52,895 nucleotides of DNA from Escherichia phage LF82-10. Position 1 is the stretch's first letter, and each line of letters opens with the position of its first letter. Under the pieces are notes generated by a model. It saw only the letters and a program-made list of their open reading frames with translations. It did no database searches and had not been told where the DNA came from. Below are positions 20,678-42,223 of this stretch, one piece after another. The stretch lies in sequence record PV660453; one strand, given 5' to 3'. Made by a program: the position numbers and the translations under genes.

Positions 20678-20795
20678 AATGCCACCTCGTGAGTTTGTTT
20701 GATTGAGTGCAAATAATACACCAGCGAGCAGACAAAATCAAAGTCAACATGTCGTTCCTGTAGTTAGCTGTTAAGAAAATCACTTTCCGGCGATT

Positions 20796-20814
20796 TCGAT
20801 ACACGCAACTACAG
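20796..20814 (+). repeat. direct repeat TCGATACACGCAACTACAG, copy 1
   Basis: identical 19-mer recurs at 21013-21031; related copy AATACGCACTACAAC at 42082-42096. Confidence 0.7.
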
Positions 20815-20838
20815 AAAACTACAGCGTTATACATTGCG

Positions 20839-20880
20839 TAAGTATATATATAATAAGGGTTTATCTAATATTATTATTAT
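20839..20880 (+). repeat. AT-rich element (TAAGTATATATA...GGTTT...ATCTAAT), copy A
   Basis: homologous to 41900-41950. Confidence 0.6.
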
Positions 20881-21012
20881 TACTATATTCATGTTGTAGT
20901 TAGTGTAACGGTATCGTTTGGTGATTCCCGGATATCTTTTCGAATAGTTGAGTTAATTGTGTGGTTATTAGGATGCCGATACCTGGCTACCCCTCCGCAA
21001 TCCGCGTTAAAA

Positions 21013-21031
21013 TCGATACACGCAACTACAG
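21013..21031 (+). repeat. direct repeat TCGATACACGCAACTACAG, copy 2
   Basis: identical to 20796-20814; preceded by CCCCTCCGCAATCCGC which recurs as CCCCTCCGAAATCCGC at 42056-42071. Confidence 0.7.
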
Positions 21032-21115
21032 TCAGCATTCATGCGGGTTTGAAGGGTGTTTTTTGTAACGAATGCCATTATCGACAAAAAATAACACTAA
21101 CGACACGTTATATAT

Positions 21116-21143
21116 TTGACAAAGCGAATGAACCGCGTATACT
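21116..21143 (+). promoter_or_regulatory. sigma70-like promoter TTGACA-16-TATACT for recombination operon
   Basis: near-consensus hexamers 30 bp upstream of 21174 start. Confidence 0.55.
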
Positions 21144-21173
21144 CAGCCACATCAACCACAACTGAGGAATAAA

Positions 21174-22232
21174 GTGATGAATCCAACAAGACCTGAATCA
21201 GATTTTTTCTGGTTCACCAGCGATGAAATGCCGAACGATTTTTACCACGACAAAGAGGCATGGACTTTTGATTTCGTATCAGGCTCCAGCCTTTGCGACA
21301 TTCACCAATCGTCACCCGCTTCATGGTTCTTCGCCAAAAACGAGATCACAAAGGCGCTTGAGTTTGGTACTCAGTCACACACCAACTTTGAATCGAAGTC
21401 GCTGTTTGATGCAACGTATCGACGCGCACCAGCCCCGGAAGACTTCGAAAACTTGATTACGTCTCAGGCAGCGCTGGCTACGAAGTTGAAATCATTCGGC
21501 CTGACTGGTACAAGCGGGAAGCAATATCCAGAGCTGATCAAAATGATGGTTGATTGCGGTGAAGATCTTAACGTGTTGTGGCTTATTGATATGATCGCAC
21601 AGTGCCAGGCTTGGGCTGATGGCGTTGAGTTGGTCAAGGCTGAGGATTACGACAAGTGCAAGATGATGCGCGCCGTTCTGGAATCAGTGCCGGAATACGC
21701 AATGATGATGGAAAGCCCAACGGCAATGCACGAGCTTTCATTGTTCGGAAAGATCAGCGGCGTTGACGTAAAAGTCAGACTTGACTACGTTGACACGGTT
21801 ACTGATCCAAACCTCATTCGTCATTTTGGGTACGATCCAGAGCTACACCCTGAAATCATTGTGATTATGGACTACAAAACGACGAGCAGCGCCAACCCGG
21901 CAGATTTTGACCGAAAGGCATTCGATCTTGGGTATTATCTGAAGATGGCATTGCAGCGTGATTTATTCGTCAAAGTGTACGATGAGAAGCGCCCCGTTTG
22001 CTTGGTTCTGCTTACACAGGAAAAGAAAGAGCCATTCTTGCCACTTGGAAGGCCAATGACGCGCGAGCAGCTTCTTTTAGGCCGCAAGCAGTATATGGGT
22101 GTCATTCACACTTACTCGATCTGCAAGGAATCAAACGTTTGGCCTGGCTATGCAAACGGCGCTCCTTTCGTTAGCCTTGAAACGCCTGACTACATCAAGC
22201 GCCAGCATAAGGATATTTTCGGCGGAGAGTAA
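21174..22232 (+). CDS. recombination exonuclease (PD-(D/E)XK, RecE/YqaJ-like)
   Basis: 352 aa; PD-(D/E)XK-like segment IVIMDYKTT; precedes Erf-like and SSB genes. Confidence 0.5.
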   Translation: MMNPTRPESDFFWFTSDEMPNDFYHDKEAWTFDFVSGSSLCDIHQSSPASWFFAKNEITKALEFGTQSHTNFESKSLFDATYRRAPAPEDFENLITSQAALATKLKSFGLTGTSGKQYPELIKMMVDCGEDLNVLWLIDMIAQCQAWADGVELVKAEDYDKCKMMRAVLESVPEYAMMMESPTAMHELSLFGKISGVDVKVRLDYVDTVTDPNLIRHFGYDPELHPEIIVIMDYKTTSSANPADFDRKAFDLGYYLKMALQRDLFVKVYDEKRPVCLVLLTQEKKEPFLPLGRPMTREQLLLGRKQYMGVIHTYSICKESNVWPGYANGAPFVSLETPDYIKRQHKDIFGGE

Positions 22233-22247
22233 TAGCACTAAAAGCTA
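22233..22247 (+). promoter_or_regulatory. TAGCA-box (TAGCACTAAAAGCTA) upstream of Erf-like gene
   Basis: starts 1 nt after exonuclease stop; -10 TATAAT at 22269-22274 within inverted repeat. Confidence 0.55.
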
Positions 22248-22311
22248 AACAAAAGCGGTGATGTTTGGTATAATCACCGCTCAATCAAACGAACGAAAAG
22301 AGGCATAAGCA

Positions 22312-22971
22312 ATGCGAACTTCAGAAAGTATTATCAATGTTTCAAAGGCTCTCATCGAGGCGAAAAAGAAATTTGCCATCGCCAAAAAATCCGGTTTTAA
22401 CAAACACCTCAACTCCCATTATTCAAACCTGACGGATGTATTGGAGGCGATCGAGCCAGCGCTGAAAGAGCTTGATTTGATGGTTATTCAGTCAAACCTT
22501 GAAAGCACGACAGATAAGGTTATGCACATCGAAACGCTGATCCTTCATACATCCGGCGAATGGCTTGCATTCCAGTACAACATGCCTATAGAGAAAATCC
22601 AGGCTCAGGCATACGGCTCAACAACATCATACGGGCGACGTTATGCACTTTGTGCCGCGCTCAGCATCACTCAGAGCGACGACGACGCAGAGATCGCGAA
22701 ACGCACCGCGTCGGATTACAAAAAGCTGGTAGCAGATTGCAACGATATCGAGGCGCTTGGAACCATTTACCAAAGTGCCAAGCAATCACTCGGAGCGGCA
22801 GAGTGGAAAATTGCAGAGGAGCATTTGCGCAAACGCAAAGCAGAATTGCAAGCCGGAACGGCGCGAGGATTTAACCCACCTCAAAAGCAGGAAGCGCCAA
22901 AGAAACAAAATCAGGTTGAAGAGAAGCCACAACATCCGGTAGACTCTCAAAACATCGAAGACTTTAACTAA
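22312..22971 (+). CDS. single-strand annealing protein (Erf-like)
   Basis: 219 aa; N-terminal region resembles Erf family; between exonuclease and SSB. Confidence 0.55.
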   Translation: MRTSESIINVSKALIEAKKKFAIAKKSGFNKHLNSHYSNLTDVLEAIEPALKELDLMVIQSNLESTTDKVMHIETLILHTSGEWLAFQYNMPIEKIQAQAYGSTTSYGRRYALCAALSITQSDDDAEIAKRTASDYKKLVADCNDIEALGTIYQSAKQSLGAAEWKIAEEHLRKRKAELQAGTARGFNPPQKQEAPKKQNQVEEKPQHPVDSQNIEDFN

Positions 22972-23012
22972 ACCAAAGGGGGCGAAAGCCCCCTCACTAA
23001 CAGGAAATCAAA

Positions 23013-23498
23013 ATGCCGCACATCATCACAGGTGAGATCAAAAAAGCCCCGTACACCAAAGACGGAAGCAACAATAACGGGCGATGGAAAATGTACATTG
23101 TCGATCTGAGTGAGCGCATGAAAGTGCGCAACCCTGACACACAGGCCGATGAAGTTGTTTACACAAACTACAAGGCAACCTTCTTTGCAAAAGAAAACGT
23201 CATGCAGTGGTACGATGAAGCGTTCCAGGTTGGCAAGGTAATCAGCGTAACGTGTGACACGCTGCAAATCACCAGCCGAGATCACAACGGCAATACGTAT
23301 CTTACGGCTGAAATGATCCGGCCTCAACTGACCTTCAGCCAGCGAGAGGCTCAGCAGCAGGGATGGGGGCAACCACAGCAGCCGCAAGGCAATCAGCAAC
23401 AAAGCCAGCACAGACCACCACAGCAGCGACCACAGCAGCGACCACAGCAGCAACAGCCACAGCAGGGAAATCAGTTTGACGATGACATTCCATTCTGA
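23013..23498 (+). CDS. ssb: single-stranded DNA-binding protein
   Basis: 161 aa ending in the canonical acidic SSB tail DDDIPF, preceded by Gln/Pro-rich linker. Confidence 0.8.
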   Translation: MPHIITGEIKKAPYTKDGSNNNGRWKMYIVDLSERMKVRNPDTQADEVVYTNYKATFFAKENVMQWYDEAFQVGKVISVTCDTLQITSRDHNGNTYLTAEMIRPQLTFSQREAQQQGWGQPQQPQGNQQQSQHRPPQQRPQQRPQQQQPQQGNQFDDDIPF

Positions 23499-23503
23499 CG
23501 GGT

Positions 23504-23536
23504 AAAAATAAAGGAGCCTTTCGGCTCCTTTTTTAT
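23504..23536. terminator. bidirectional terminator between ssb and tail fibre gene
   Basis: AAAAATAAA-GGAGCC-TTTC-GGCTCC-TTTTTTATTT. Confidence 0.6.
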
Positions 23537-25899
23537 TTCAGCAATAACGACTCAAGTTTAGCAAGGCGCTCTTCCATTTCCTCCATTCTGTTACCCATGT
23601 AAACCATAGCACAGGCCATATCAGTAAGCATGACGTTTGAATCAAGAGCTAGCGTATCGTCCTTAAATCCAGTCTCGATCTGCCTGGCAACGTACTCCTC
23701 ACCATTCTCGTTGACTCCGATAACATCTTCAAAGATCGGAGCGCCAGGGACTACTTTCACATACTGACTATCAACTTTATTCAAGTCCTGAGCAATCAGA
23801 CCGAATCTCTGTGTGTCAGATCCCTTATACTTGAACATGGTTGGGAGCCACTGCATTACGCGATCATAGCTCTCCTTTCCTTCGGTGTATTTGATATCCC
23901 ACTTAAGATCCCGGTCAGACGTTGGCGCTTTCTGGAATGTATACCCCCCATCCCATCCTCCACCCTGACCCCATGAGATAATATCTGATGATGGTGCATG
24001 GAATTCAAATCCGCGATGGTACGCACCATCACCAAGCATCTTAATTACTGCGCGAGGCCATCCGTTGTTCCCGCTAGAAATCATACCAAGAGAGGTATTC
24101 ATTCGATACCCGCCAGTTGATGTGGTTGCCCCTGAGATCAATGAAGCATATCCGGCATCATTACCCGTTACATCACCAGCAAAGAACGTACTCCCCATGT
24201 AATCATTTGGCTGCGCCCAACCTCCTTGAGTTAACTTACCAAGAAACCCCCTTGGAGAAGATATGTGACCGCCGTATGAGTTTATGAATTTAAACTCCTT
24301 CCAGTCACTTCCTTGGTTGTTCACTCCGATCTTGAAGTGATCAATATCAGTGCCACTACCGCGAACCCCCCCAATCTGCCAGTAACCAGAGTACCAGTTA
24401 CCTTGAACCAGGTTAACCCAACTATTAACAGAGCCATCACCAGCAGCGTTTTGAATCAGGATGTTTTTGTTTCCGCCACTCTGAGTTGAAACAACGATCG
24501 ATTTACCCTGCTTTGCCTCTACGTTTCCGTTTGTTGCAACCAGAGCGCCGCCGCTAATCGTTCCGACGGCTGTCAGCGATGCAACTCCGGTAATGTTCCC
24601 CGCCTCATCAAACTGATAGTAGTTCCCCTTTCCTCCAGCCGTGTTTGCCGTGTGAATCGTTGTCTTTACAACGCCGCCTTGTAGTTCATTGTAAAATCTT
24701 GAGTTTGATTGCAGCGTTGCGCCGTCAGCAGAAAGCCTTTTACTCTCAATCAGCCCCCCACTAGTTGCTGAGCCAAGTGTTGTAGCCTCCACGCCTCCAA
24801 ATCTCACCGCTTGACCCGAGCCGATACCAAGATTGTTTCTTGCTCCGTCAGCAGTTGTTGATCCAGTGCCACCAGATCCGATAGGGATCGGGATTACATT
24901 TCCGTTACTATCCTGCCACTGGAAAATCCCATCATCGCCAATCGTCAGCCTTTTTGTTCTATCTGGCGTGCTAATGTAGTTACGCGTTCCAATGTGGCGC
25001 AGCCAGTCAAGATCAAGGTTCGTCCTCGCGGCTTGTACGTCAGTAAGATCAGATAGGTTATTTGCCTTCTTTAGCTGTTCGTCAGGGTTAGCCGTTGCTG
25101 CGCGGTCTGCTTCAGCCTTGGCTCGTGCTGCATCGTCACGAGCGGCGGCGGCAGATTGCCCGGCGCTGGTTTCGCTGTTTGCTGCATTCGTCTCGCTTAC
25201 CCTGGCGGCATCCTTGCTGGCTCCGGCTTGGGTTGCGGCAACTTCGGCGGCTTGACGATGCGCGGCAGCTTCGCCGTTAGATTGAGCGGCTGAGCTTGCG
25301 CTATTACCCGCATTTGTCTCGCTAGTCTTCGCATTGAATGCAGAATCGGCGGCAGCGTTCTTTGCGCTTGTTGCGGTTGCAGCGTCAGCGGCGGAGCTAG
25401 ATGCAGATGCGGCAGCGGCGTTTTTATCTTGCTGTGCAGACTGAGCAGATCCGGCGGCGGCGTTCTTGCTTGCCTCAGCTTCGTTTGCGTTAACTTCAGT
25501 ACGATCAGCATCAACGCGAACGGCAGACTGAAGATCTTTCAGCTCTTGCAGGTTAAAGTTCTTGAAGAAATCCATAGCCTCCTCGATCACAGTTTCCTTG
25601 CTTTGGTAGTAGCGCAGAGTTTCAGCCACATCTTGAGCAAGGCCATCAACAGTGATTGAGTCATGCAGCAGGATTACATAGTTCGTACCATCCGGCACAA
25701 CTGCATCATCCGTTTGGATCGCTCGCATTTCCGTGTCACTCACGATCGCGGAAATAGTAACCAGCGTTAGTGGTTGAGTTAAAAACACCATCGTTGCCCC
25801 AACGCGAATCAGAGACAGCTTGTCTTGCCATTTCGTATCAACGCCAGTTACAACGCCGTTAGCGGCCAATCCCGCCGTTCCTCTACGATAAATCGCCAT
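23533..25899 (-). CDS. tail fibre with C-terminal intramolecular chaperone (S74-like) domain
   Basis: ATG at 25899 (SD AGGTG); Ala/Ser/Asn-rich low-complexity segment; C-terminal region (DRDLKWDIKY...LIAQDLNKV...LAKLESLL) resembles auto-cleaving fibre chaperone domains. Confidence 0.75.
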   Translation of the reverse strand: MAIYRRGTAGLAANGVVTGVDTKWQDKLSLIRVGATMVFLTQPLTLVTISAIVSDTEMRAIQTDDAVVPDGTNYVILLHDSITVDGLAQDVAETLRYYQSKETVIEEAMDFFKNFNLQELKDLQSAVRVDADRTEVNANEAEASKNAAAGSAQSAQQDKNAAAASASSSAADAATATSAKNAAADSAFNAKTSETNAGNSASSAAQSNGEAAAHRQAAEVAATQAGASKDAARVSETNAANSETSAGQSAAAARDDAARAKAEADRAATANPDEQLKKANNLSDLTDVQAARTNLDLDWLRHIGTRNYISTPDRTKRLTIGDDGIFQWQDSNGNVIPIPIGSGGTGSTTADGARNNLGIGSGQAVRFGGVEATTLGSATSGGLIESKRLSADGATLQSNSRFYNELQGGVVKTTIHTANTAGGKGNYYQFDEAGNITGVASLTAVGTISGGALVATNGNVEAKQGKSIVVSTQSGGNKNILIQNAAGDGSVNSWVNLVQGNWYSGYWQIGGVRGSGTDIDHFKIGVNNQGSDWKEFKFINSYGGHISSPRGFLGKLTQGGWAQPNDYMGSTFFAGDVTGNDAGYASLISGATTSTGGYRMNTSLGMISSGNNGWPRAVIKMLGDGAYHRGFEFHAPSSDIISWGQGGGWDGGYTFQKAPTSDRDLKWDIKYTEGKESYDRVMQWLPTMFKYKGSDTQRFGLIAQDLNKVDSQYVKVVPGAPIFEDVIGVNENGEEYVARQIETGFKDDTLALDSNVMLTDMACAMVYMGNRMEEMEERLAKLESLLLK

Positions 25900-25922
25900 T
25901 GTCAACACCTCTTGTTAGTAAA

Positions 25923-25937
25923 TAGCACGAATTGCTA
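25923..25937 (+). promoter_or_regulatory. TAGCA-box (TAGCACGAATTGCTA) over predicted start site of tail fibre transcript
   Basis: minus-strand -10 TATAAT at 25944-25949 lies upstream of box; operator-like position. Confidence 0.45.
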
Positions 25938-25965
25938 AAACGCATTATATCAGGCATTCAGGCAA

Positions 25966-25990
25966 TAAAAAACCCTCCGAAGAGGGTTGT
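25966..25990 (-). terminator. terminator for primase transcript (minus strand)
   Basis: minus-strand reading CAACCCTCTTCGGAGGGTTTTTT. Confidence 0.5.
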
Positions 25991-25998
25991 TGTTCGAT

Positions 25999-26934
25999 TT
26001 ACTCCAGTCTGTCAATAAGAGATTGCGGATCGTATAGCCTACGCTGCATCCCCTGGCGGAAATTGTCATTGTTCGGCAAGATTACCCTCAGATCCCGATC
26101 GTCAGCCATGCACAGGGTTTGGTAATCGGTAGACAGGCAAGCAACGCGAAGCTCACGATCTCCTTTGTATCGCCAAGCCACAATTTCAAGGTTCTCGGGC
26201 GTGAAAGTGACCCATACTTCCTGATTGGTTGCCGTCGCTACGCGATGCCCTTCGATTATGTCGCACACCAGATAAATAGAGCCAGTGCCAGCACCAAGCT
26301 TAACAACTGAACCGCGAGAATGATCGCGAGCCATAAAAGAATATTCCCCACTTTCATTAACAAACAGGATATTACACATTTCATCATCCAATCCTTCCGG
26401 TTGAGCGAGATAGCACGGATATGCATGAATAAGCGATTCTCCGCCATTCTCGCGAGGTTTTACGCCTACAATGAATGATTCATCCAATAGGCACTCATAA
26501 ACGCTTAGAGGCGTGCTGGCTCGCAATTCAGTGCGCTCCATAACAGCCATACAGGCATCGTGATCAACTTGCTTGCCAATATTGGCATCGGTTGTTCTCG
26601 CTATGCGCTTGTAAGCCTTCACGCGGTACTCTTGCGGAACCTTGCCCAAGAAGCGCCCCAGGATGTTAACCGCCTCGCTGTATGGCTCACCAGTCAGCTT
26701 CATGACCCAGCCAATGCCTTTATCGTTACCGCATGCGTTACAGATCGCCCCGCCGTCACCCTTCGACTCAAGGTTATCAGTCCAGCGGAAGCGGTCATTG
26801 CCGCCACAGTTTGGGCATGGCTGGTGTTTGCCATTGAATACGGTTGAGGGAAGAGCGCATATTGACTGCAACGCCTCGCGCCATAATCCTTTCATGTATG
26901 GCAAAACTTCCTCTTTCTGGTACATCATCGACAT
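25999..26934 (-). CDS. putative DNA primase
   Basis: 311 aa; N-terminal zinc ribbon CPNCGG-(x19)-CNACG like primase zinc-binding domains; adjacent to helicase module. Confidence 0.5.
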   Translation of the reverse strand: MSMMYQKEEVLPYMKGLWREALQSICALPSTVFNGKHQPCPNCGGNDRFRWTDNLESKGDGGAICNACGNDKGIGWVMKLTGEPYSEAVNILGRFLGKVPQEYRVKAYKRIARTTDANIGKQVDHDACMAVMERTELRASTPLSVYECLLDESFIVGVKPRENGGESLIHAYPCYLAQPEGLDDEMCNILFVNESGEYSFMARDHSRGSVVKLGAGTGSIYLVCDIIEGHRVATATNQEVWVTFTPENLEIVAWRYKGDRELRVACLSTDYQTLCMADDRDLRVILPNNDNFRQGMQRRLYDPQSLIDRLE

Positions 26935-26989
26935 CGCAAAAACTCCAGTATAAAAAAGGGTTGCACCGATTATGGCACAACCCGCGAGA

Positions 26990-27448
26990 TCATTGATTAG
27001 CTTTTCGTGCTTTCAGTGTTTTCCAGGATGGTTGCTCCGGCTTGGTTTCTAACTCTTCCTTTCTCACCACGCGCAGCATGTGACGCTTTTTGCATCGGAC
27101 TGTTAGCGGCTTGCCGTTGCCGTCGAATGACAGATCAGGGCGGCACCACGACGCGCGGAAACCTCCGCCATTTCGTTTATATGCGTTGTGCGCCAGTTGC
27201 GCGCCTCGCGCTGAAATCATGCCGCGTTGCCGCCACTCATAAACAACCTGAAGCGAAACGCGCAATTCTTTCGCCAGCTTTGCAGGTGAGCCGTAGAATT
27301 CAAGGATGGTATCTAATCTAGCCTTAAGCCCGGCCTTTACTTCGTCTCGTAAAACATAGTAACCTACTGGACGTTTTCGGCGCTTAGCGTCACTTCCGCG
27401 CTTCGTTCCATTGTTCCCATTAAGCGTGCGTTTATCTACGGTTTCCAT
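26990..27448 (-). CDS. Cro/CI-type HTH DNA-binding protein (candidate regulator)
   Basis: 152 aa, basic; HTH-like segment LAKELRVSLQVVYEWRQRGMIS; its leader contains a TAGCA-box. Confidence 0.55.
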   Translation of the reverse strand: METVDKRTLNGNNGTKRGSDAKRRKRPVGYYVLRDEVKAGLKARLDTILEFYGSPAKLAKELRVSLQVVYEWRQRGMISARGAQLAHNAYKRNGGGFRASWCRPDLSFDGNGKPLTVRCKKRHMLRVVRKEELETKPEQPSWKTLKARKANQ

Positions 27449-27461
27449 AATTATTCCTCAA

Positions 27462-27476
27462 TAGCATTTTTTGTTA
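27462..27476 (+). promoter_or_regulatory. TAGCA-box variant (TAGCATTTTTTGTTA) in divergent HTH-helicase control region
   Basis: -10 TGTATTAT 27496-27503 for helicase at +36; same box lies between minus-strand -10 (27499-27504) and the HTH gene SD. Confidence 0.55.
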
Positions 27477-27540
27477 AAACTGGATTGTTGAGGCGTGTAT
27501 TATATCAATCAAACGAACGAACATCAAAGGCATTAACACG

Positions 27541-29610: not shown

Positions 29611-30026
29611 TTACTGACAAGGGCGATTATCTTGAATATTACACCCCTGATAAGGGGTGTACCCTGAAGGAAGAGACTCACCAGGTTAACGGCGTTTCGT
29701 GGCTAAAGTACCACTACCCAAACCTGATGTTTTGGCACACGGTCAACGAGGGGCAGAAGCACATAAACACAGCCCTAAAAGATGAGCAAGCCGGGCTTAA
29801 GAAAGGTGTCAGCGACTTCGTATTTCTGATTGGTCATTTCGATCGGAAATATTGCTTTGGGGCTATTGAGCTGAAGCGCACCAACAAGAGCGGAAAGTAC
29901 AAGGCATCACCAGTCAGTAAGGAGCAGAAAGCTTTCCTTCTCGGTGTGCGTGAACGTGGGGGGTTCGCGGCTGTGGCTTACGGATTCGAGGAGTTGAAGA
30001 AAGCCGTTGAGGACATGATGAAATAG
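29607..30026 (+). CDS. VRR-NUC domain nuclease
   Basis: 139 aa; PD-(D/E)XK-like core (DFVFLIG...GAIELK) consistent with VRR-NUC; overlaps helicase stop. Confidence 0.55.
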   Translation: MITDKGDYLEYYTPDKGCTLKEETHQVNGVSWLKYHYPNLMFWHTVNEGQKHINTALKDEQAGLKKGVSDFVFLIGHFDRKYCFGAIELKRTNKSGKYKASPVSKEQKAFLLGVRERGGFAAVAYGFEELKKAVEDMMK

Positions 30027-30810: not shown

Positions 30811-30812
30811 AA

Positions 30813-33378: not shown

Positions 33379-33404
33379 AGCAACACATTCATCACCTTAC
33401 CTAT

Positions 33405-33445: not shown

Positions 33446-33510
33446 CCGAGCCGGGTTACAATCCTTTTACTAACTAAATATTGACATTCAAAGAGTTTAA
33501 GGATCTGATC

Positions 33511-33729: not shown

Positions 33730-33730
33730 C

Positions 33731-34216: not shown

Positions 34217-34644
34217 AACGCGTAAGCAACTCAATGCTGATCTTCGTAACCATCCTCGTGTTCGTTGCAGTGACTTCGCTATCTGGTTGCTCAACGGCTG
34301 GCGCTCTGACTGGTTTGATCGGCAGCAAGCCGGAAATCTCAGCACAGGCCGGAGCGGAAAACACGAAACAGACGGTTGGCCTAAACAACAAAGTGGATCA
34401 GTCAAGCGAGGTGGAAACCACGATTCGTGATTCAAAGGTTGGAAAGGTTGACAGCTCTAACGGAAAGAAGACCAGCGCATCAAGCATCACGGCTGAAACC
34501 ATCAAGGCCGACAAGATCGAGATTCGCAATAGTGATGGAGAGGCGTTTGGTATTGCGGCTGGTTTCTTCGTCGCTGGTCTGATTGCAGGTTCAAGCGCCG
34601 TTGCATACTTAGCAACGAGACGCAGAAACAACAAAGGAGCCTAA
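34213..34644 (+). CDS. unimolecular spanin (u-spanin)
   Basis: 143 aa; N-terminal lipoprotein signal with lipobox LSGC and C-terminal TM segment ([21 protein letters not shown]) followed by RRRNNKGA; architecture as in T1 gp11. Confidence 0.7.
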
Positions 34645-34660
34645 CGGCTCCTTTTTTATT
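34634..34660. terminator. bidirectional terminator between spanin gene and leftward accessory operon
   Basis: AAAGGAGCC-TAAC-GGCTCC-TTTTTTATT; overlaps both stop codons. Confidence 0.6.
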
Positions 34661-34850
34661 TGTAACGCTTTGCCAGTATCAGAAGTTCACCAGCATCATT
34701 GCACAACGTGTGCTCATCCTTCTTCCCGGCTCGCATCGAACTATTCAGCAGTGACAGCAGGGCGTAATTTAACTCGTCCTCCGTCACCCCTTGAGAGGCG
34801 CAAGCCTCAATAATCGCGTTGATTAGGTTTTGAGCAACCAAAAAGTTCAT
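34656..34850 (-). CDS. hypothetical protein
   Basis: in-frame ATG (MNFLVAQ...) at 34850; 64 aa; last gene of leftward accessory operon. Confidence 0.35.
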   Translation of the reverse strand: MNFLVAQNLINAIIEACASQGVTEDELNYALLSLLNSSMRAGKKDEHTLCNDAGELLILAKRYK

Positions 34851-35169
34851 CGTCGCTGAGCTTGTCAATATTCATCATCTCCCATGTGTAACGATCCTCT
34901 TCACCGCCGTAACAGTTGAAATCAAATTCAAAGGGGCGCTTCTGCGCCCCCTTGCTCCAGTACCAGAGGTTTACGCCGTCAAGGTAGCCCAACCCCATCA
35001 TCCTTGCAACAAACTCCTTAGAAGCGCTTGAGGCGAAGTAACGAGGGGTTACGTTAGCGGCCTTTGCAAGCCGCTCGCACTCGTGATGCTTGAAAATGAA
35101 TTGCGCCAAGTGTTGGCGGTTGAATTTCGTGTAACTCTCACAGAACTTATACAGATCCAGAAGGAACAT
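34807..35169 (-). CDS. hypothetical protein
   Basis: 120 aa; ATG 2 nt after upstream stop. Confidence 0.4.
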   Translation of the reverse strand: MFLLDLYKFCESYTKFNRQHLAQFIFKHHECERLAKAANVTPRYFASSASKEFVARMMGLGYLDGVNLWYWSKGAQKRPFEFDFNCYGGEEDRYTWEMMNIDKLSDDELFGCSKPNQRDY

Positions 35170-35171
35170 GA

Positions 35172-36758: not shown

Positions 36759-36814
36759 GTTAAAAACTCCTTGTTTGGTTGCTCAATGATAGAGCAACCA
36801 ATGATAGTGCGTTT

Positions 36815-36829
36815 TGGCAAAAAGTGCTA
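36815..36829 (-). promoter_or_regulatory. TAGCA-box (TAGCACTTTTTGCCA) upstream of 528-aa gene
   Basis: -10 TATCAT at 36786-36791 (minus). Confidence 0.5.
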
Positions 36830-36833
36830 TTGG

Positions 36834-37250
36834 TTATAAATATTTTGCTTCAAATGTTGTGCCGTCTGCGATCGAAAATCCAACCTCCTCGCGGTAAAGG
36901 TTCCACGGTGAGCCGTCCTCGTCAAAGATAAGCCCGGCAACCCCACCAAGCGCCCTGCCTGAATCCACCTGGTAGCGCTTGCCAACCTTAAAGGATTTCT
37001 TCATTGGGTTCTTGTGATCCAGCGTCATGCACTTCAGGGTTTTAGTTTTCATCTCAACGAATGTTGCAGCAACGACGCCATCCGATGAAACGAAAATATC
37101 ACCGCTTACGCCAACCGAAAGCACGATCTTAGCCTTGCCCTTGCCGATTGAAATGTTGCCTTCATCGTCAACTTTCGCCTTATACATGTGGTTAGCGTTG
37201 AAGGTTTTAGTTAATGACATGGTGCATTTGATCTTGATTGACTTTGACAT
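36834..37250 (-). CDS. hypothetical protein (IKIKCT N-terminus, MKxKC-family)
   Basis: in-frame ATG at 37250 (MSKSIKIKCT...), SD AGGA; 138 aa. Confidence 0.45.
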   Translation of the reverse strand: MSKSIKIKCTMSLTKTFNANHMYKAKVDDEGNISIGKGKAKIVLSVGVSGDIFVSSDGVVAATFVEMKTKTLKCMTLDHKNPMKKSFKVGKRYQVDSGRALGGVAGLIFDEDGSPWNLYREEVGFSIADGTTFEAKYL

Positions 37251-37307
37251 TTTTAGTTCCTCGTTGTTGGTGTGAATGAATAATAACAAAACCCGCCGAA
37301 GCGGGTT

Positions 37308-37322
37308 TAACAAAAAGTGCTA
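37308..37322 (-). promoter_or_regulatory. TAGCA-box (TAGCACTTTTTGTTA)
   Basis: TAG is stop of 37320..38012; followed by hairpin CCCGCTTCGGCGGG and -10 TATTAT 37280-37285 (minus). Confidence 0.55.
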
Positions 37323-38012
37323 TTTGTAACGGTTGTACTGGAAGACGGCGCGAGCGAATCCGCGCGGAGTTAGGGAGCGGAGTTGCTTAGTCTTCGCAGA
37401 CTTTCCGCCGAGGAACTTCCAGCCCCAAAAGAAATGCAAGCCTTCCTCTTTTGGTAATGGTGCCTTCTCTGGCTCGCGGAAACCGTTGCCATGCCAGATG
37501 CAAGTTTTTTTCGTGTAGCCGTCTCGCAGTGGCATTTTGGGGTGCCAGGAGCCTTCACGCGCATCGACGTATTGCCCGAAGTCACGAGGATGGAAATAGA
37601 ATTTAGGCTTGCCCAGGTTTTCCGGCTTTGACATTGCCCCTACCGGGTTTTCAATCATCCACGGGATCTGGTAGCGTTCGCCAATCTCAATGACAACCTT
37701 TGCACACTCAAGCGCATATTTCATTTCGGCGTCGTCTCTCTCGTGCTGCGCGCCAGATTGGGCAAACAGAGTGCAATCCGGGAAGCCAAAAACGATATCA
37801 GGCTTGGGCAACCCCAGGATCTCAGCCTTTGTGATGAAATCCTTATCAATCCACGTATTCACATATCGGATATTTGGGTGATTCATCTTCACGGCGTACT
37901 CGCCATGATTGCCGGAGTCAGCGTTGAAGCATATCACCTGACAACCAACCTCAGCCCAAGGCAATCCCATAATGCCGGAGCCGTCAAACAGCGACCATAC
38001 AACACGCTTCAT
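37320..38012 (-). CDS. short C5-cytosine methyltransferase-like SAM-dependent protein
   Basis: 230 aa; motif I-like LFDGSGIMG, motif IV-like GFPDC (Pro-Cys region), motif VI-like ENPVG; no room for a normal target-recognition domain; stop TAG embedded in box 37308-37322. Confidence 0.5.
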   Translation of the reverse strand: MKRVVWSLFDGSGIMGLPWAEVGCQVICFNADSGNHGEYAVKMNHPNIRYVNTWIDKDFITKAEILGLPKPDIVFGFPDCTLFAQSGAQHERDDAEMKYALECAKVVIEIGERYQIPWMIENPVGAMSKPENLGKPKFYFHPRDFGQYVDAREGSWHPKMPLRDGYTKKTCIWHGNGFREPEKAPLPKEEGLHFFWGWKFLGGKSAKTKQLRSLTPRGFARAVFQYNRYK

Positions 38013-38230
38013 TCTGCCACCTCTTCAAATTTAGCCACGCCCAGGATTACCCATCCTTTATGGTGCATAGTAACCGCTTGCCACTCGAATGAGCCGTTGC
38101 GGCGCTTCTCATCGCCAGTGATCACAGCATCACCGCCAACCTTCACGGCATCGTAGATTTTACCTTTCGTGAAGTGTGGCTTTTGCTTCTTATCGGTTGG
38201 CGAAACAGCGCCAGTACATTTCAGTTTCAT
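38009..38230 (-). CDS. hypothetical small protein (MKLKCT, MKxKC-family)
   Basis: 73 aa; SD AAGGA; stop overlaps next start (ATGA). Confidence 0.45.
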   Translation of the reverse strand: MKLKCTGAVSPTDKKQKPHFTKGKIYDAVKVGGDAVITGDEKRRNGSFEWQAVTMHHKGWVILGVAKFEEVAE

Positions 38231-38239
38231 TGCAGATCC

Positions 38240-38479
38240 TTAAAATGGAATTTCATCTTTGCAAGCTTGACATACTTTCTCAGGCGTGCATGAGCAGTTA
38301 TAAGCGCAAACAGAAACCGGATTATTGCCGATAACCTTGCTTTCTGATTGGTGATCCATTCCACCAAGAGCATCATCAAGCTCTATGCACCCATAGGCAA
38401 CCATCATTGCCCACTCGTCGTTAAGCCCGGCATCCTTAGCCGCGCGGTGGCGGCTCCAGAAGTTATTGACGTTCTTCAT
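38240..38479 (-). CDS. hypothetical Cys-containing small protein
   Basis: in-frame ATG (MKNVNNFW...) with SD GGGAG inside ORF-track 38240..38770; 79 aa. Confidence 0.35.
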   Translation of the reverse strand: MKNVNNFWSRHRAAKDAGLNDEWAMMVAYGCIELDDALGGMDHQSESKVIGNNPVSVCAYNCSCTPEKVCQACKDEIPF

Positions 38480-38705
38480 TCTCGCGCTCCCGATCCTGAT
38501 AGCCGATTTCAACGAGCGCGGAGCCAGCAGCCTCGACGAATTCCATGTTGCAGCACATAAAGAAAAGTTCCTTGTATTGCTGAGGAACATCAAGCGCATC
38601 GATAATCTCTCTTGCGCGATCTTCATCGATATCGTTGCGATATAGCCCGATCTGGCGCGAATGCATACGGAACGTCGCGCCAGCTTCAATCTTGTTGATA
38701 GCCAT
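38463..38705 (-). CDS. hypothetical protein
   Basis: 80 aa; ATG directly after upstream stop codons, SD GGAG. Confidence 0.4.
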   Translation of the reverse strand: MAINKIEAGATFRMHSRQIGLYRNDIDEDRAREIIDALDVPQQYKELFFMCCNMEFVEAAGSALVEIGYQDRERENEERQ

Positions 38706-38708
38706 TTA

Positions 38709-38933
38709 TTAGCTCCAGGAGTTGATAAACATTGCGTTACCTTCAAGAACCTGAATAACTTCAAACTCACTGTATTTCGTCAGGCCGGAACCTGGGGTTT
38801 TGCCAACCACAAAGGAGCCATCACGGCGAGCGGTAATGCAAATCTGAGTCAGGCCGGATGCGCGATCCAATTTCACGCGAACGGAGCCAGTTTTATCCAG
38901 GTGTGCCATGATATTTGCGGTTTTAACTTTCAT
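38709..38933 (-). CDS. hypothetical protein
   Basis: start placed at in-frame ATG (MKVKTANIM...) with SD AAGGAA; downstream of box 38992-39006. Confidence 0.4.
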   Translation of the reverse strand: MKVKTANIMAHLDKTGSVRVKLDRASGLTQICITARRDGSFVVGKTPGSGLTKYSEFEVIQVLEGNAMFINSWS

Positions 38934-38991
38934 CTTCATTTCCTTGTTTGTTGGTGTAACTGCATTATTGCAGATCACGCCGATTTAGTTT

Positions 38992-39006
38992 TAACAAAAA
39001 GTGCTA
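38992..39006 (-). promoter_or_regulatory. TAGCA-box (TAGCACTTTTTGTTA)
   Basis: TAG is stop of 39004..39351; weak -10 AATAAT at 38964-38969 (minus). Confidence 0.5.
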
Positions 39007-39351
39007 TTTGATGCCGTCAAAGGTTGTGTATTTCAGGTTCACACTGACCTTGCCATCATCGAAATGGAAAGCGGGAGCCTCAAAGCGGATGATGTTATTC
39101 ATCGTTCCGGCCTCTACGTAGCGTCGTGCGCCATTTCTCATGGGGATAACGCTGACTCTCTTTGCCGCATCGAATGGATTTGAAACGCCAAAGTATCGAC
39201 ATACAGCGCCGCGCAACGCCTCATCTTCATGCTTATGCATATCACGGATGAGGCGATTTTTAGCGTCCATCATCACATCATAGCTTGCACAGCTAGAGCC
39301 GATGTTGCTATATTCGCGCATTCCGCCAACCTTGAATTGATTGTTGTTCAT
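39004..39351 (-). CDS. hypothetical protein
   Basis: 115 aa; stop TAG embedded in box 38992-39006. Confidence 0.4.
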   Translation of the reverse strand: MNNNQFKVGGMREYSNIGSSCASYDVMMDAKNRLIRDMHKHEDEALRGAVCRYFGVSNPFDAAKRVSVIPMRNGARRYVEAGTMNNIIRFEAPAFHFDDGKVSVNLKYTTFDGIK

Positions 39352-39596
39352 GGTAACTTTACCTCGTTGTATTCACAGAATTCGATTACATATTCACAGC
39401 TATCGGTTGACTCAGTGCCGCGCAGAACATCACAGCCGCCATCACTACCCAAGAAGGCCGGGCATGAAGCGCACAGCGCGCCGCCGCAATTCGATTCGAC
39501 GATTGACATTCCGTTACACCTTCCGCCGCCGAATCGGTGCGGAAAGTCATAGGCGCGGCAGTCGCACGTAACCTGGTGTCGCTTACGCTTTTGCAT
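39348..39596 (-). CDS. cysteine-rich small protein
   Basis: 82 aa with ~10 Cys in CxC / CxxC-like spacing. Confidence 0.4.
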   Translation of the reverse strand: MQKRKRHQVTCDCRAYDFPHRFGGGRCNGMSIVESNCGGALCASCPAFLGSDGGCDVLRGTESTDSCEYVIEFCEYNEVKLP

Positions 39597-39807
39597 CTGC
39601 CAGCCACTTAGCGTATTTTGCGCGCTGATTCATTGAGCAGGTGATCCCCTCTTCCTTCATGTTGCTCGCGCGGTAGATCTCAACCTGTGATTCCGTGTTT
39701 AACTTGCCATCACGAACGTAAACGGAGCCACGGAAGGTGTGGAAAACTACATCTTTCATGGTTGCAGCCAGCGCCAGGAATTCAGACTTTTTCATCATAT
39801 GTGCCAT
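39583..39807 (-). CDS. hypothetical protein
   Basis: 74 aa; downstream of box 39867-39881 and -10 CATAAT. Confidence 0.4.
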   Translation of the reverse strand: MAHMMKKSEFLALAATMKDVVFHTFRGSVYVRDGKLNTESQVEIYRASNMKEEGITCSMNQRAKYAKWLADAKA

Positions 39808-39866
39808 TTGCTTATCTCCGTTTCGTTTTAGTGGTTACATTATGCCGGGTTTCCGCCCGGCACGTT

Positions 39867-39881
39867 TAGCAATTAGTGCTA
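39867..39881 (-). promoter_or_regulatory. TAGCA-box (TAGCACTAATTGCTA)
   Basis: abuts stop of 39882..40088; -10 CATAAT 39839-39844 (minus) after hairpin. Confidence 0.55.
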
Positions 39882-40088
39882 TCAGATTGATTCGATTACC
39901 GCGTGGAAATCTTTGCGGGTTTTGCAGTCTGCCAGGCGTGCATAACATGCTTTAGCGTAGTCAGTATCGGCCTGAGTTTCGAAGATGCCACACTCTTTGG
40001 CGATAGCTTTTAATGTACGCTTTCCGCTTTCGATATCAGCCTTGATGCCGTTGATGGTGTTGATGTCGATGATGTTAAGAGTTGTCAT
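39882..40088 (-). CDS. hypothetical protein
   Basis: 68 aa; downstream of box 40155-40169. Confidence 0.4.
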   Translation of the reverse strand: MTTLNIIDINTINGIKADIESGKRTLKAIAKECGIFETQADTDYAKACYARLADCKTRKDFHAVIESI

Positions 40089-40154
40089 TTTGCTATCCTT
40101 TTGTGTGCTTCGTTTCGATGGAGTAATAATAGCAAAAGCCAGATCGGGAGTTTT

Positions 40155-40169
40155 AGCAAAAAGTGCTAT
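40155..40169 (-). promoter_or_regulatory. TAGCA-box (TAGCACTTTTTGCTA)
   Basis: -10 TATTAT 40126-40131 (minus). Confidence 0.5.
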
Positions 40170-40230
40170 TTTCCCGATCCGGCGCGCGGAACATCTGCCC
40201 CATGGTTTGGGGTGTTAACCAGTCAGAGCG

Positions 40231-40659
40231 TCATGCGTAATAAAGCCCTGATGTTAGTTTCTCAACGTCAACCTTCGCCTTGTACGGCTTATCACACCCA
40301 AGGCACCAGGCTATATAATCAGCGCCATGATCACAAGACGAAATCCAGACGCGCCATTGCTTTGACCCGGCGTGCCAGCGATACAGAACCTTGTAATCCT
40401 CACTATGGAAGTAAACGCCATCATCATCATCGCGGATGATATGCCCACGCTCAAACAGCTTGAAGCGCTTCACGGTTTCGATGATGTAGCGCGCCTGAGG
40501 GTTAGCGCTCCCGGTTTTGTACACGCGCCCGGCTGACATTTTGCCTTCACTATCACTGATGCGAACCATCGTCATTCCACCATCGACGTGCTGACGGGTA
40601 ACAGTGGCACCACGGCTTTTGGCGAACTCCAGCGCCTTGATCAGATGTTTGTTTTTCAC
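40231..40659 (-). CDS. hypothetical protein
   Basis: 142 aa ORF. Confidence 0.4.
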   Translation of the reverse strand: MKNKHLIKALEFAKSRGATVTRQHVDGGMTMVRISDSEGKMSAGRVYKTGSANPQARYIIETVKRFKLFERGHIIRDDDDGVYFHSEDYKVLYRWHAGSKQWRVWISSCDHGADYIAWCLGCDKPYKAKVDVEKLTSGLYYA

Positions 40660-40871
40660 GCTTTATTCCTCGTTAATTTGAAAGTCAATTCAACCTCGCC
40701 CACAACCTCCGCCATCCCATGATTTACCATGTAACGAAACTCTTCATAGGTAAATGCGGTTTGCGCTGGCAGGCCATCCATGATGCGCATACAAGGCAAC
40801 TCACTGTAGCGCGTCATTGGGATCGCGTACTCGCGCCCGGTTGTCTTAATGCGGATAAGTTTCATTTTCAT
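40656..40871 (-). CDS. hypothetical protein
   Basis: 71 aa; stop overlaps downstream start. Confidence 0.4.
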   Translation of the reverse strand: MKMKLIRIKTTGREYAIPMTRYSELPCMRIMDGLPAQTAFTYEEFRYMVNHGMAEVVGEVELTFKLTRNKA

Positions 40872-41026
40872 TGCGCCTCCATCTCCTCAACTGAACCACA
40901 GTACCCTTTCTCATTGTTGATCTCATCCTCACGAGCAACCGCATCACTCTCTTTAAGCCATACGCTATCAACCTCTGAGTCTCCGCCACTAAAGAACTCG
41001 TGACGCATCACAACGTATACGATCAT
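40868..41026 (-). CDS. hypothetical small protein
   Basis: start placed at in-frame ATG (MIVYVV...) adjacent to upstream stop; acidic C-terminus; weak. Confidence 0.25.
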   Translation of the reverse strand: MIVYVVMRHEFFSGGDSEVDSVWLKESDAVAREDEINNEKGYCGSVEEMEAQ

Positions 41027-41271
41027 AACCACTCCATTGCTTTGATGATGCACTCTGCCTGTGAGCCGATAAACGAGTTGTCTTTGGTATCAGCTCTCCA
41101 CTGACGCGATCCTTTTGCCACCTGGGTGCACGTAATCATAACGCCACCACGATAACCAACCTTGAACGCGTTTGATGTCTTGCCATTACTGCGCTTACGG
41201 AAATGGTCAGTAACGATTACTCCGTTGTCAGTTGCAGCGTCGATTGCTTGCTGAATGGTTAACTTGCTCAT
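41023..41271 (-). CDS. hypothetical basic protein
   Basis: 82 aa, 3 nt after upstream stop. Confidence 0.4.
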   Translation of the reverse strand: MSKLTIQQAIDAATDNGVIVTDHFRKRSNGKTSNAFKVGYRGGVMITCTQVAKGSRQWRADTKDNSFIGSQAECIIKAMEWL

Positions 41272-41274
41272 AAA

Positions 41275-41514
41275 TTACCCCTTGATAGTCAGGCCGAAAG
41301 CCTCAACCAGAATGTCACTTGCAGCGTGCATTTCGCAACGAGCAACCTCACGGTCATCAAAATTCTCTACAGCGTACATCACAACACCACGAGCCTGATC
41401 AGCTTCTACAAACTGGTTGCAACGGTCATTCAGTTCTTTCGCTAACTCAGCGTCAAAATCAGCCGTTACGCCTTCGATAAACTCCGCCTCGGTGATGATG
41501 TTCATGTAGCGCAT
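41275..41514 (-). CDS. hypothetical acidic protein (first gene of leftward accessory operon)
   Basis: 79 aa; downstream of box 41575-41589 and -10 TATAGT. Confidence 0.4.
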   Translation of the reverse strand: MRYMNIITEAEFIEGVTADFDAELAKELNDRCNQFVEADQARGVVMYAVENFDDREVARCEMHAASDILVEAFGLTIKG

Positions 41515-41574
41515 TGCTGTTTCCTCAGTTCGTTTCGTTGAGATAACTATAGCCGAAACATCCTGAGTGGTTTT

Positions 41575-41589
41575 AGCAAAAAGTGCTAT
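41575..41589 (-). promoter_or_regulatory. TAGCA-box (TAGCACTTTTTGCTA), first of leftward accessory operon
   Basis: -10 TATAGT 41546-41551 (minus). Confidence 0.55.
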
Positions 41590-41602
41590 TGATTCGATTT
41601 AT

Positions 41603-41664
41603 CCAATTATTCCATTATTCCAACTATTCTGGAATATTCCTGAATAACCGAATATCTGGAATAG
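41603..41664. repeat. cluster of GGAATA/TATTCC motifs including perfect palindrome GGAATATTCC (41631-41640)
   Basis: ATTATTCCA x2, GGAATATTCC, CTGGAATAG in 62 bp; GGAATAATTGGAATAG recurs at 42931-42946. Confidence 0.6.
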
Positions 41665-41709
41665 TCAAAATGACTATGGCTCTCCGTTCGTTTTAGCGAA
41701 CAAACGTTC

Positions 41710-41730
41710 GATGTGATGTGATGTGATGTG
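41710..41730 (+). repeat. (GATGT)4 microsatellite
   Basis: GATGTGATGTGATGTGATGTG. Confidence 0.8.
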
Positions 41731-41899
41731 AATGAGGGTGAGGAGGCGATCAGATCTGATCCCGAAACTTTTTCCCTCACCGCACGATTTGCTAATGAAT
41801 TGTCGTGCCTGTAGTTGTATGTTGTGTTTTACGTTTTCCGTGGAAATCGGTACGCGCTACTACGCGGAATAACAATGTTATGCTTTATATATAGATATA

Positions 41900-41950
41900 T
41901 AAGTATATATAAAATAAAGGTTTTTTATTATATATATTATCTAATTTCAT
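41900..41950 (+). repeat. AT-rich element (TAAGTATATATA...GGTTTTTT...ATCTAAT), copy B
   Basis: homologous to 20839-20880. Confidence 0.6.
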
Positions 41951-42162
41951 AACACTTTATAACGTGTTGTGTTTGTTCCGCCGGACGCGGAGTGATTGAT
42001 ATGTTTCGCGGCCTATTTATGCCTATATTGTGAAATATGGGTAGGGGGATATATACCCCTCCGAAATCCGCAACAAACGCTTAATACGCACTACAACCCA
42101 GCAGGAATGCACCATGTAGAGGAGATTTTGTTGATAATGGCAATAATCGACACAAATTAATC

Positions 42163-42191
42163 TTGACTACAATTAAGCTTTTCCGCATTAT
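42163..42191 (+). promoter_or_regulatory. sigma70-like promoter TTGACT-17-CATTAT for rightward accessory operon
   Basis: hexamers at 42163-42168 and 42186-42191, 33 bp upstream of 42224. Confidence 0.55.
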
Positions 42192-42223
42192 GGCGGCTCA
42201 ACCAATCAGATGAGGTATCACCC

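Follow-up and report, generated by a model that had tools for sequence, protein, structure and literature searches.

Introduction

The origins of phage SPP1 combine repeats with an AT-rich segment, and in P4 two homologous cis regions several kilobases apart, ori and crr, carry the same short repeat (of the TGTTCACC type) and are bound by the alpha primase-helicase. In the origins of Staphylococcus aureus pathogenicity islands (SaPIs) and of the phage-inducible chromosomal islands (PICIs), as in the archaeal origins built from a DNA-unwinding element (DUE) between origin recognition boxes (ORB-DUE-ORB), initiator sites flank an AT-rich unwinding region, and in the SaPIs the element-specific repeat matches a variable part of the initiator. 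The T4 origins oriF and oriG and the primary origin of T7 consist of a promoter with a downstream AT-rich DUE. Here we analysed a 52,895-bp stretch of DNA, hereafter called the window, from Escherichia phage LF82-10 (record PV660453; LF82 for short), which covers practically the entire genome of a T1-like siphovirus. We describe two homologous non-coding regions, about 21 kb apart, that are candidate replication origins.

T1 belongs to the classical T phages, and phages related to it are common contaminants in the laboratory as well as therapy candidates. A 2024 re-analysis of the related phage TLS searched for a replication origin and found none, and it lists basic regulatory questions as open. 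Our starting point was an original prediction, made from the letters of the LF82 sequence, according to which two divergent intergenic regions share ordered elements and are probably either immediate-early promoters of the host RNA polymerase with shared cis elements or duplicated origin-like modules. In the literature that we searched, which did not include the T1 genome paper, we found no description of these modules.

Results

Two large gaps carry copies of one non-coding module

The largest two non-coding gaps of the genome are region 1 (20678-21173), which has a leftward 99-aa gene on one side and the rightward recE-erf-ssb operon on the other, and region 2 (41515-42223), which separates the two arms of small early genes, one leftward and one rightward. 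The gene map thus confirmed that both regions part a leftward from a rightward gene block. Within them we delimited the following elements, for which L119 denotes a Logan contig whose transcriptional regulator is 98% identical and whose region 1 is about 90% identical to that of LF82:

20750-21094, no strand: module 1, non-coding, between the leftward 99-aa gene and recE; its blocks are collinear with those of module 2, and it is about 90% conserved in L119
41801-42160, no strand: module 2, the paralogue of module 1, occupying the right two-thirds of region 2
20988-21005, with a twin at 42054-42071, no strand: block D, TACCCCTCCGCAATCCGC, matching at 17 of 18 positions between the modules and conserved in L119

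The original prediction had named a similarity no higher than that of shuffled AT-rich sequence as the result that would speak against it. Pairwise local alignment of the two regions scored 53, compared with 21.9 ± 2.6 (maximum 33) in dinucleotide shuffles, which corresponds to z = 12 and places the similarity well above this background. A global alignment of 20749-21143 with 41803-42191 gave 60.7% identity (z = 9.8 against shuffles), and since z was unchanged at 9.8 when the TA-rich cores were cut out, the similarity is not a matter of low complexity. The block-to-block spacings in modules 1 and 2 were 34 and 34, 55 and 65, 151 and 156, and 90 and 90 bp, respectively. Given the same order and orientation and the near-identical spacing of the blocks, together with these alignment scores, the two modules are two copies of one non-coding module of about 350 bp.

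All the shared elements that had been listed were recovered at the positions given for them, namely the motif TAAGTATATATA (20839-20850 and 41900-41911), the motif ATCTAAT (20863-20869 and 41939-41945), the segment CCCCTCCG(C/A)AATCCGC (20990-21005 and 42056-42071) and the exact 19-mer TCGATACACGCAACTACAG (20796-20814 and 21013-21031), of which module 2 holds a degenerate copy at 42084-42095. Further shared blocks had been absent from that list: TGTCGT(T/G)CCTGTAGTT at 20750 and 41801, block B (TTTCCG..GA..TCG.TAC.CGC.ACTAC) at 20784 and 41835, and ATCGACA.AAA.TAA at 21080 and 42146. A block common to both modules can also be written as TACCCCTCCG.AATCCGC, and the ATACCCCTCCGCA of block D occurs in Vilniusvirus as well.

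As these are the largest non-coding gaps of the genome, and small open reading frames are annotated here in phages NBD2 and HazelMika, the modules might encode paralogous small RNAs or micro-proteins. Yet a search of Rfam at gathering and E-value thresholds gave no match (the best was GcvB, with E = 0.9 and a bit score of 15.5, where the gathering score is 42), and no small open reading frame over the shared blocks is kept in frame between the modules. Indeed, block D is read in different frames, the starts are GTG or TTG, and the indels of the global alignment are not multiples of three. We give this account the smallest chance of all those considered here.

The TA-rich cores are the least stable DNA of the genome

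Each module contains a TA-rich core:

20839-20889, no strand: core 1, candidate DUE; its dG of -46.1 kcal/mol makes it the second least stable 50-bp duplex in the window (z = 5.7), and it aligns across the family
41886-41950, no strand: core 2, candidate DUE; no duplex of the window is less stable, whether 30, 50 or 100 bp are taken (z = 5.4 to 6.3)

By nearest-neighbour energies, the two cores rank as the top two of the window in duplex instability at 30-, 50- and 100-bp window sizes (z = 5 to 6), so that both modules have the adjacent AT-rich segment of low stability that is typical of iteron-plus-DUE origins such as those of lambda, SPP1, plasmids and SaPIs. All 14 ATATATA heptamers of the window fall within regions 1 and 2, as do 5 of 5 in HazelMika and 18 of 20 in T1 for the corresponding regions, and for each of 10 additional IMG/VR loci of 20 kb, the 60 nt richest in AT lay inside these regions. 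When 26 cores were aligned, a conserved order of motifs emerged (TATAAT..., ARGTTTA, TTATT and TATATATCTATA), and the TA core is therefore a conserved sequence, more than AT-rich filler. In many lineages the core has preserved, on its left edge, a perfect TATAAT, for which no -35 partner was found.

The centre of the core fits the consensus for integration host factor (IHF), WATCAANNNNTTR, exactly in the IMG/VR loci L045, L016, L020 and L032 (for example AATCAATAGTTTA), and the cores of the window read AATAAGGGTTTA or AATAAAGGTTTT, with no fit. GATC occurs at 349 sites in the genome (about 3.3 per 500 bp), yet at none in 20678-21173 and 41801-42223. A DnaA-dependent origin of the oriC type was rejected, the modules being devoid of DnaA boxes, an IHF core and GATC.

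Convergent repeats flank the cores

The cores are accompanied by copies of a short repeat, some strong and some degenerate:

20807-20814 and 20817-20824, plus strand: two direct repeats AACTACAG pointing into core 1; AACTACA is kept in L119 and the flanks are altered
20894-20901, minus strand: inverted repeat AACTACAA flanking core 1 on its right side, in a stretch 100% conserved in L119
20758-20765, minus strand: distal left repeat AACTACAG of module 1, with its positional counterpart in module 2 at 41809-41816
21024-21031, plus strand: distal right repeat AACTACAG of module 1, part of the second 19-mer copy; L119 reads AGTTACAA there
41809-41816, minus strand: the only strong AACTACAG copy of module 2 (12.6 bits with a weight matrix trained on module 1)
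41857-41863, plus strand: degenerate repeat CTACTAC, the positional counterpart of 20807-20814 in the block B alignment, below the matrix threshold
42089-42096, plus strand: degenerate repeat CACTACAA, the positional counterpart of 21024-21031
42165-42172, plus strand: degenerate copy of the repeat, GACTACAA, which overlaps the -35 of the rightward region-2 promoter

The window contains 10 copies of AACTACAR, compared with 1.9 expected, and 6 of them lie in regions 1 and 2, which make up 2.3% of the sequence; for AACTACAG, the proportion is five of six (p = 3.6e-8). A short repeat that is clustered here and rare elsewhere is again typical of such origins; the clustering is strong in module 1, whereas module 2 shows it weakly. 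The AACTACAR copies flanking the cores are oriented towards the core. On the left flank of module 1, TACA recurs at 20800, 20810, 20820 and 20830, hence in a 10-bp phase of one helical turn each, and the longer site on the right flank, CCGTTACACTAACTACAAC, is the mirror of the left site TCGATACACGCAACTACAG. No repeat arrays other than those of regions 1 and 2 were found in the genome.

Predicted host-type promoters adjoin the modules

The promoters predicted in and around these regions are the following:

21116-21143, plus strand: sigma70 promoter of the recE-erf-ssb operon, TTGACA-16-TATACT, 11 of 12 consensus positions; hexamers conserved in L119, Vilniusvirus and T1; equivalent to TLS P51
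42163-42191, plus strand: sigma70-like promoter of the early operon that runs rightward and begins with a gene for a DUF7174 protein, TTGACT-17-CATTAT, 9 of 12 consensus positions; equivalent to TLS P01
20713-20741, minus strand: sigma70-like promoter of the leftward genes of region 1, TTGATT-17-TATTAT; hexamers conserved in L119, with a varying spacer
27499-27527, minus strand: sigma70 promoter of the regulator and primase genes, TTGATG-17-TATAAT preceded by TG (extended -10); equivalent to TLS P57

Their hexamers, spaced 16-18 bp apart and kept in relatives, assign these predicted promoters to the sigma70 class. Both near-consensus rightward promoters, at 21116-21143 and 42163-42191, had been foreseen, and matched at 11 and 9 of 12 positions; that neither carries a TAGCA-box, as had also been claimed, agrees with our survey of this element (see below). 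The TLS paper reports just three intergenic sigma70 promoters in TLS, located before gp01 (the region-2 equivalent), recE (the region-1 equivalent) and the Cro-like regulator.

In module 1 the repeats overlap no core promoter; the repeat nearest to 21116-21143 is separated from its -35 hexamer by 85 bp, and the one nearest to the leftward promoter lies 17 bp upstream of that promoter's -35 hexamer. On the minus strand, a promoter-like site at 20909-20882 has a repeat within its spacer. The repeats were absent both from the TAGCA-box promoters, about 20 in number, and from the promoter of the regulator itself.

The notion of host-driven immediate-early promoters with shared cis elements therefore holds in its promoter half, given canonical sigma70 promoters free of a TAGCA-box, a conserved recE promoter and the TLS list. 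As parts of these promoters the shared elements do not qualify, since they lie 20-370 bp upstream of the -35 hexamers, have a 350-bp architecture of their own and in TLS belong to a module in a non-divergent region. One could still suppose that both regions are plain early promoter regions of the host RNA polymerase, related by an old duplication and equipped with sites for host factors (UP elements, curved DNA, Fis, IHF or H-NS) and with no phage-specific binder. Strong sigma70 promoters do stand at the right edge of both modules, upstream AT-rich DNA often stimulates promoters, and the centre of the TA core fits the IHF consensus WATCAANNNNTTR in several other lineages. The TA core, however, is about 250 bp away from the -35 hexamers, beyond the range of an UP element, and the IHF, DnaA and Fis consensus sequences were not found in the modules of the window. 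Moreover, the repeats differ among lineages that share hosts and match within a genome, which is unlike host-factor sites. We consider such plain promoter regions improbable.

The family shares the layout, whereas each lineage has repeats of its own

Over the stretches tested, LF82 is 100% identical to Escherichia phage LF82-11 (PV660454), and the nearest named genus is Vilniusvirus, at about 72%. A search for close relatives in IMG/VR via RecE and the DUF7174 protein returned only NBD2 itself, and L119 was found in Logan. The same layout in the same two places was seen in T1, TLS, Vilniusvirus and about 50 metagenomic relatives, and in every Drexlerviridae lineage examined; in T1, TLS, NBD2 and HazelMika both regions are present with this layout. 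Schematic maps across the lineages show rightward-pointing repeats, the TA core and leftward-pointing repeats. In TLS, region 1 lies between two rightward genes, and divergent transcription is therefore not the conserved property of the module.

The repeats differ from lineage to lineage. T1 carries GTGTAACA, with 4 of 4 genome copies in the two regions, and elsewhere we found GTGAACA/AGAACAA (TLS), ATAACAA (Vilniusvirus), CGTGACA (IME347, our L031), RTAAACAA (L034) and TGGGACAAA (L066), the last in about 11 copies that include perfect palindromes and lie, all but one, within 480 bp. The GAACAA of the TLS repeat reads AAACAA in L034, a G-to-A replacement that is found on both flanks of the core. 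Automatic extraction of one repeat per lineage from the core flanks was noisy in A-rich lineages, and the pairing of repeats with protein helices described below rests on clear cases only. Among nine genomes, matched region pairs had 68 GC-containing 7-mers in common and mismatched pairs 49 (p = 5e-5 by permutation). Between genera, orthologous regions can hardly be aligned; region 1 of LF82 compared with that of T1 gave z = 1.6, and the within-genome region pairs gave z = 13 in LF82 and in T1.

At closer range, L119 keeps both flanking promoters in their hexamers, as well as the TA core, the repeat on the right flank and the sequence around it, blocks D and G, and the AACTACA cores of the left repeats, and it varies in the sequence around the repeat cores and in the promoter spacers. 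Its counterparts of the two 19-mers differ from one another and from LF82, and because the copy at 21024 is not conserved there, the exact 19-mer duplication is, by this comparison, a lineage peculiarity of this phage. Within contig positions 16473-16971 of L119, block B of module 1 reads TTCCGTGGAAATCG, identical to the module-2 version of LF82 (41835-41851), and module 1 of LF82 (20784-20800) reads TTCCGGCGATTTCG. This match suggests gene conversion or another exchange of sequence between the two modules.

In the locus L066 (7858-14264), whose regulator is 46% identical, the helicase, regulator and primase genes, a repeat module and recE, erf and ssb follow one another with no tail-fibre gene in between, so that the module sits within the replication cluster. 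Given that L066 holds the replication genes and the module on one stretch, the gene arrangement of LF82 and T1 looks like the result of a rearrangement.

A Cro-fold protein is the best candidate for binding the repeats

Lineage-specific sites that evolve in concert at two places call for a phage-encoded binder, and the best candidate, judging from its predicted structure, is the product of the following gene:

26990-27448, minus strand: gene for a Cro-fold helix-turn-helix protein of 152 aa (homologue of T1 gp23), candidate repeat binder; annotated 'transcriptional regulator' and directly upstream of the primase gene (25999-26934)

This gene stands back-to-back with the helicase gene. The AlphaFold model of the protein (pLDDT 88) is an all-alpha Cro fold, the best matches that Foldseek returned from the PDB were Xfaso1 Cro (3bd1, probability 1.00, TM 0.73 on the target) and N15 Cro, and Pfam gave weak matches to P22_Cro and YdaS, all of which identify a phage-encoded helix-turn-helix protein of the Cro/CI type. 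Across 62 homologues, the helix-turn-helix is the most variable structured part, with an entropy of 1.7 bits versus 0.85 in the flanking parts and 58 variants of residues 63-75 in the 62 sequences; strong conservation is seen in the basic N-terminal arm and in a C-terminal segment of 35 residues. In clear-cut lineages each distinct recognition helix pairs with a distinct repeat, a correspondence that is confounded by shared ancestry and noisy in A-rich lineages.

T1-type primases carry a zinc ribbon of the P4/T7 type. The P4-type primase and the TGTTCAC-like repeat of TLS had prompted us to consider homology between the binder and the origin-binding domain of P4 alpha, which was unsupported, as there was no PDB sequence hit and the fold is Cro-like.

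A Cro fold is equally what one would expect if the modules were operator arrays for a Cro-like early regulator, the virulent counterpart of lambda OL/OR. Here the 152-aa protein, made from one immediate-early promoter, would bind the repeats that precede the other two and shut these off or reprogramme them in the course of infection, and the TA core would be a bent or flexible spacer. The three canonical sigma70 promoters of the family are indeed the two beside the modules and the regulator's own, even though the latter has no site. In LF82, T1 and TLS, the region-2 promoter has words resembling the repeat over its core, and the promoter-like minus-strand site at 20909-20882 has a repeat in its spacer; the overlap known from lambdoid phages is nevertheless missing, as module 2 has merely a degenerate word over its -35 hexamer and the module-1 repeats overlap the -35 and -10 hexamers of neither flanking promoter, most sites being 85-370 bp upstream. 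While the perfect palindromic pairs of L066 (TTTGTCC-TT-GGACAAA) are typical of dimeric helix-turn-helix operators, directly phased repeats that converge on an AT-rich core are no operator layout. A 350-bp module with further conserved blocks and a sequence-conserved 60-bp TA core also far exceeds the needs of an operator, and the protein has strongly conserved extra parts at its N- and C-termini. Operator arrays are the main rival account, one that we take seriously and deem rather unlikely.

Region 2 has additional sequence next to a probable pac site

To the left of module 2, region 2 has two features that lie outside the shared module:

41540-41591, minus strand: leftward TAGCA-box promoter of region 2, 78-85% conserved across many Drexlerviridae
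41597-41761, no strand: repeats found in region 2 only, TTATTCCA/TGGAATA, (GATGT)4 and GATCAGATCTGATC; putative pac region

The copies of TTATTCCA/TGGAATA are found at 41606-41665, (GATGT)4 at approximately 41715-41735 and the palindromic GATCAGATCTGATC at 41748-41761. As the records of T1 and TLS start, at their pac end, within the stretch homologous to 41597-41761, the latter is probably the pac region. We rejected the idea that the shared module is itself pac, since the T1 and TLS ends fall in a GATGTGAT-type stretch to the left of module 2 that region 1 lacks.

In a broader form, the shared module could serve DNA packaging, as a pac or terminase-binding site, or be a hotspot for RecE/Erf recombination. 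The pac end of T1 and TLS lies inside the region-2 equivalent and module 1 adjoins the recE-erf-ssb operon, but the pac-associated TTATTCCA/TGGAATA and GATGT run is left of module 2 and not in region 1, and packaging series of the T1 type begin at a single pac site. Either role is very improbable in our view.

The TAGCA-box family, AATAGCAC-N4-TTG(C/T)TAAA(A/C), has about 20 sites in the window, always 22 nt upstream of a -10-like hexamer, for example at 30024, 33028, 42946, 43744, 45760 and 49112 on the plus strand and at 41588, 40168, 39006, 37322 and 19717 on the minus strand. A GC-rich hairpin is often found between the box and the hexamer. Its palindrome, TAGCA-N5-TGCTA, has its centre near -42, where a class II activator site would be, and the TTGCTA of the box is too far from the -10 to act as a -35 hexamer. 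The box is the 21-nt repeat already reported for TLS. A third divergent control region, 27449-27540 (92 bp), combines the sigma70 promoter of the regulator and primase genes on the minus strand with the TAGCA-box promoter of the helicase operon (27462, plus strand).

The LF82-11 record is 84 bp longer than the window, with the gap inside the tail-fibre gene (23533-25908 and 791 aa here; 23533-25983 in the record). A gene for tRNA-Ser (GCU) is located at 52298-52385, and NBD2 has one too.

Discussion

An origin function is favoured, at least for module 1. Convergent, phased and lineage-specific sites ring the most meltable DNA of the genome, as is usual in origins that depend on an initiator, and they are found at two loci only, mostly far from core promoters and with a link to replication genes. 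On these grounds the modules are, so far, the strongest candidates for the origin(s) of replication in T1-type phages. More specifically, they may be replication origins of the iteron-plus-unwinding-element type, or an origin together with an auxiliary site, coupled to immediate-early promoters, a reading for which we see about an even chance of being right. The second alternative of the original prediction, duplicated origin-like modules, fits the anatomy better than its promoter alternative did, considering the converging repeats, the least stable DNA, the family-wide layout, the lineage-specific repeats and the linkage to replication genes; "duplicated" holds only in an ancient sense, as the pair predates the family and its repeats evolve in concert.

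Under the origin reading, an ancient, family-wide module would assemble a phage-encoded DNA-binding protein around an unwinding element. The Cro-fold protein would be made early from one of the three host-type promoters, bind the repeats through its fast-evolving helix-turn-helix, oligomerise on the phased sites and open the TA core, while its conserved N- and C-terminal parts would recruit the phage helicase and primase. The neighbouring immediate-early promoters would supply negative supercoiling that aids opening, and the repeat-like word over the module-2 -35 hexamer could give feedback repression. With five strong sites, as opposed to one in module 2, module 1 is the likely main site; module 2 may serve as a second origin or else as an auxiliary site, by analogy with SPP1 oriR or P4 crr. 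A more far-reaching proposal is that these are two paralogous origins whose Cro-fold initiator and cognate repeats diversify together, a transcription-factor fold having been recruited as initiator with immediate-early feedback; the two modules may also pair or exchange sequence. This we advance tentatively, with the chances somewhat against it.

Several observations weigh against an origin function. Consensus scans found no DnaA boxes (TTWTNCACA), IHF core or Fis consensus in the modules of the window, and GC and AT skew follow gene orientation only, with no origin signal. Module 2 has that single strong site, and the copy at 21024-21031 in module 1 is not conserved in L119. Transcription control would equally well fit the position of both modules just upstream of two of the three host-type promoters, as well as the repeat-like words over the region-2 promoter, which are found in three genera, those of T1 (GTGTAACAC) and TLS (AGAACAAA) included. 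The fold of the candidate binder is that of a transcription regulator and not of a known initiator, and the helix-repeat pairing is subject to the confounding and noise mentioned above. The origin and operator readings are, however, not mutually exclusive, because initiators often autoregulate.

The two modules and the Cro-fold protein are concrete and cheaply testable candidates for the origin(s) and the initiator of this family, and the modules account for two gaps staying large in an otherwise tightly packed genome. Lineage-specific pairs of repeat and helix-turn-helix would lend themselves naturally to studies of the evolution of DNA-binding specificity, and would bear on replication incompatibility or cross-talk among co-infecting T1-like phages and any satellites that exploit them.

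Compared with the known systems, the readily melted AT-rich segment coupled to promoters resembles the T4 and T7 origins, even though the flanking sigma70 promoters point away from the core here. The initiators of the SaPI/PICI and ORB-type origins differ in being helicases or AAA+ proteins, and both the taxa and the proteins are unrelated. As in lambda OL/OR with Cro, two homologous control regions beside early promoters go together with a phage-encoded Cro-fold protein, but the lambda sites are 17-bp palindromes over the -35 and -10 hexamers, whereas the sites here are mostly non-palindromic, far upstream and arranged around an AT-rich core. With P4 ori and crr there is a likeness in the repeat itself, that of TLS (CGTGAACA) being nearly the complement of the P4 repeat; unlike in P4, the candidate binder is a separate small Cro-fold protein, and the matches returned by Foldseek did not include P4 alpha's winged-helix origin-binding domain. 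SPP1 differs in that G38P has no Cro fold and oriL lies inside its own gene, whereas both modules of LF82 are intergenic and upstream of host-type promoters. Like LF82, however, SPP1 is a virulent pac-type siphovirus, its oriL and oriR are two separate origin-type sites bound by one phage protein, G38P, and it has a recombination set of exonuclease, annealing protein and SSB that drives the shift to concatemeric replication.

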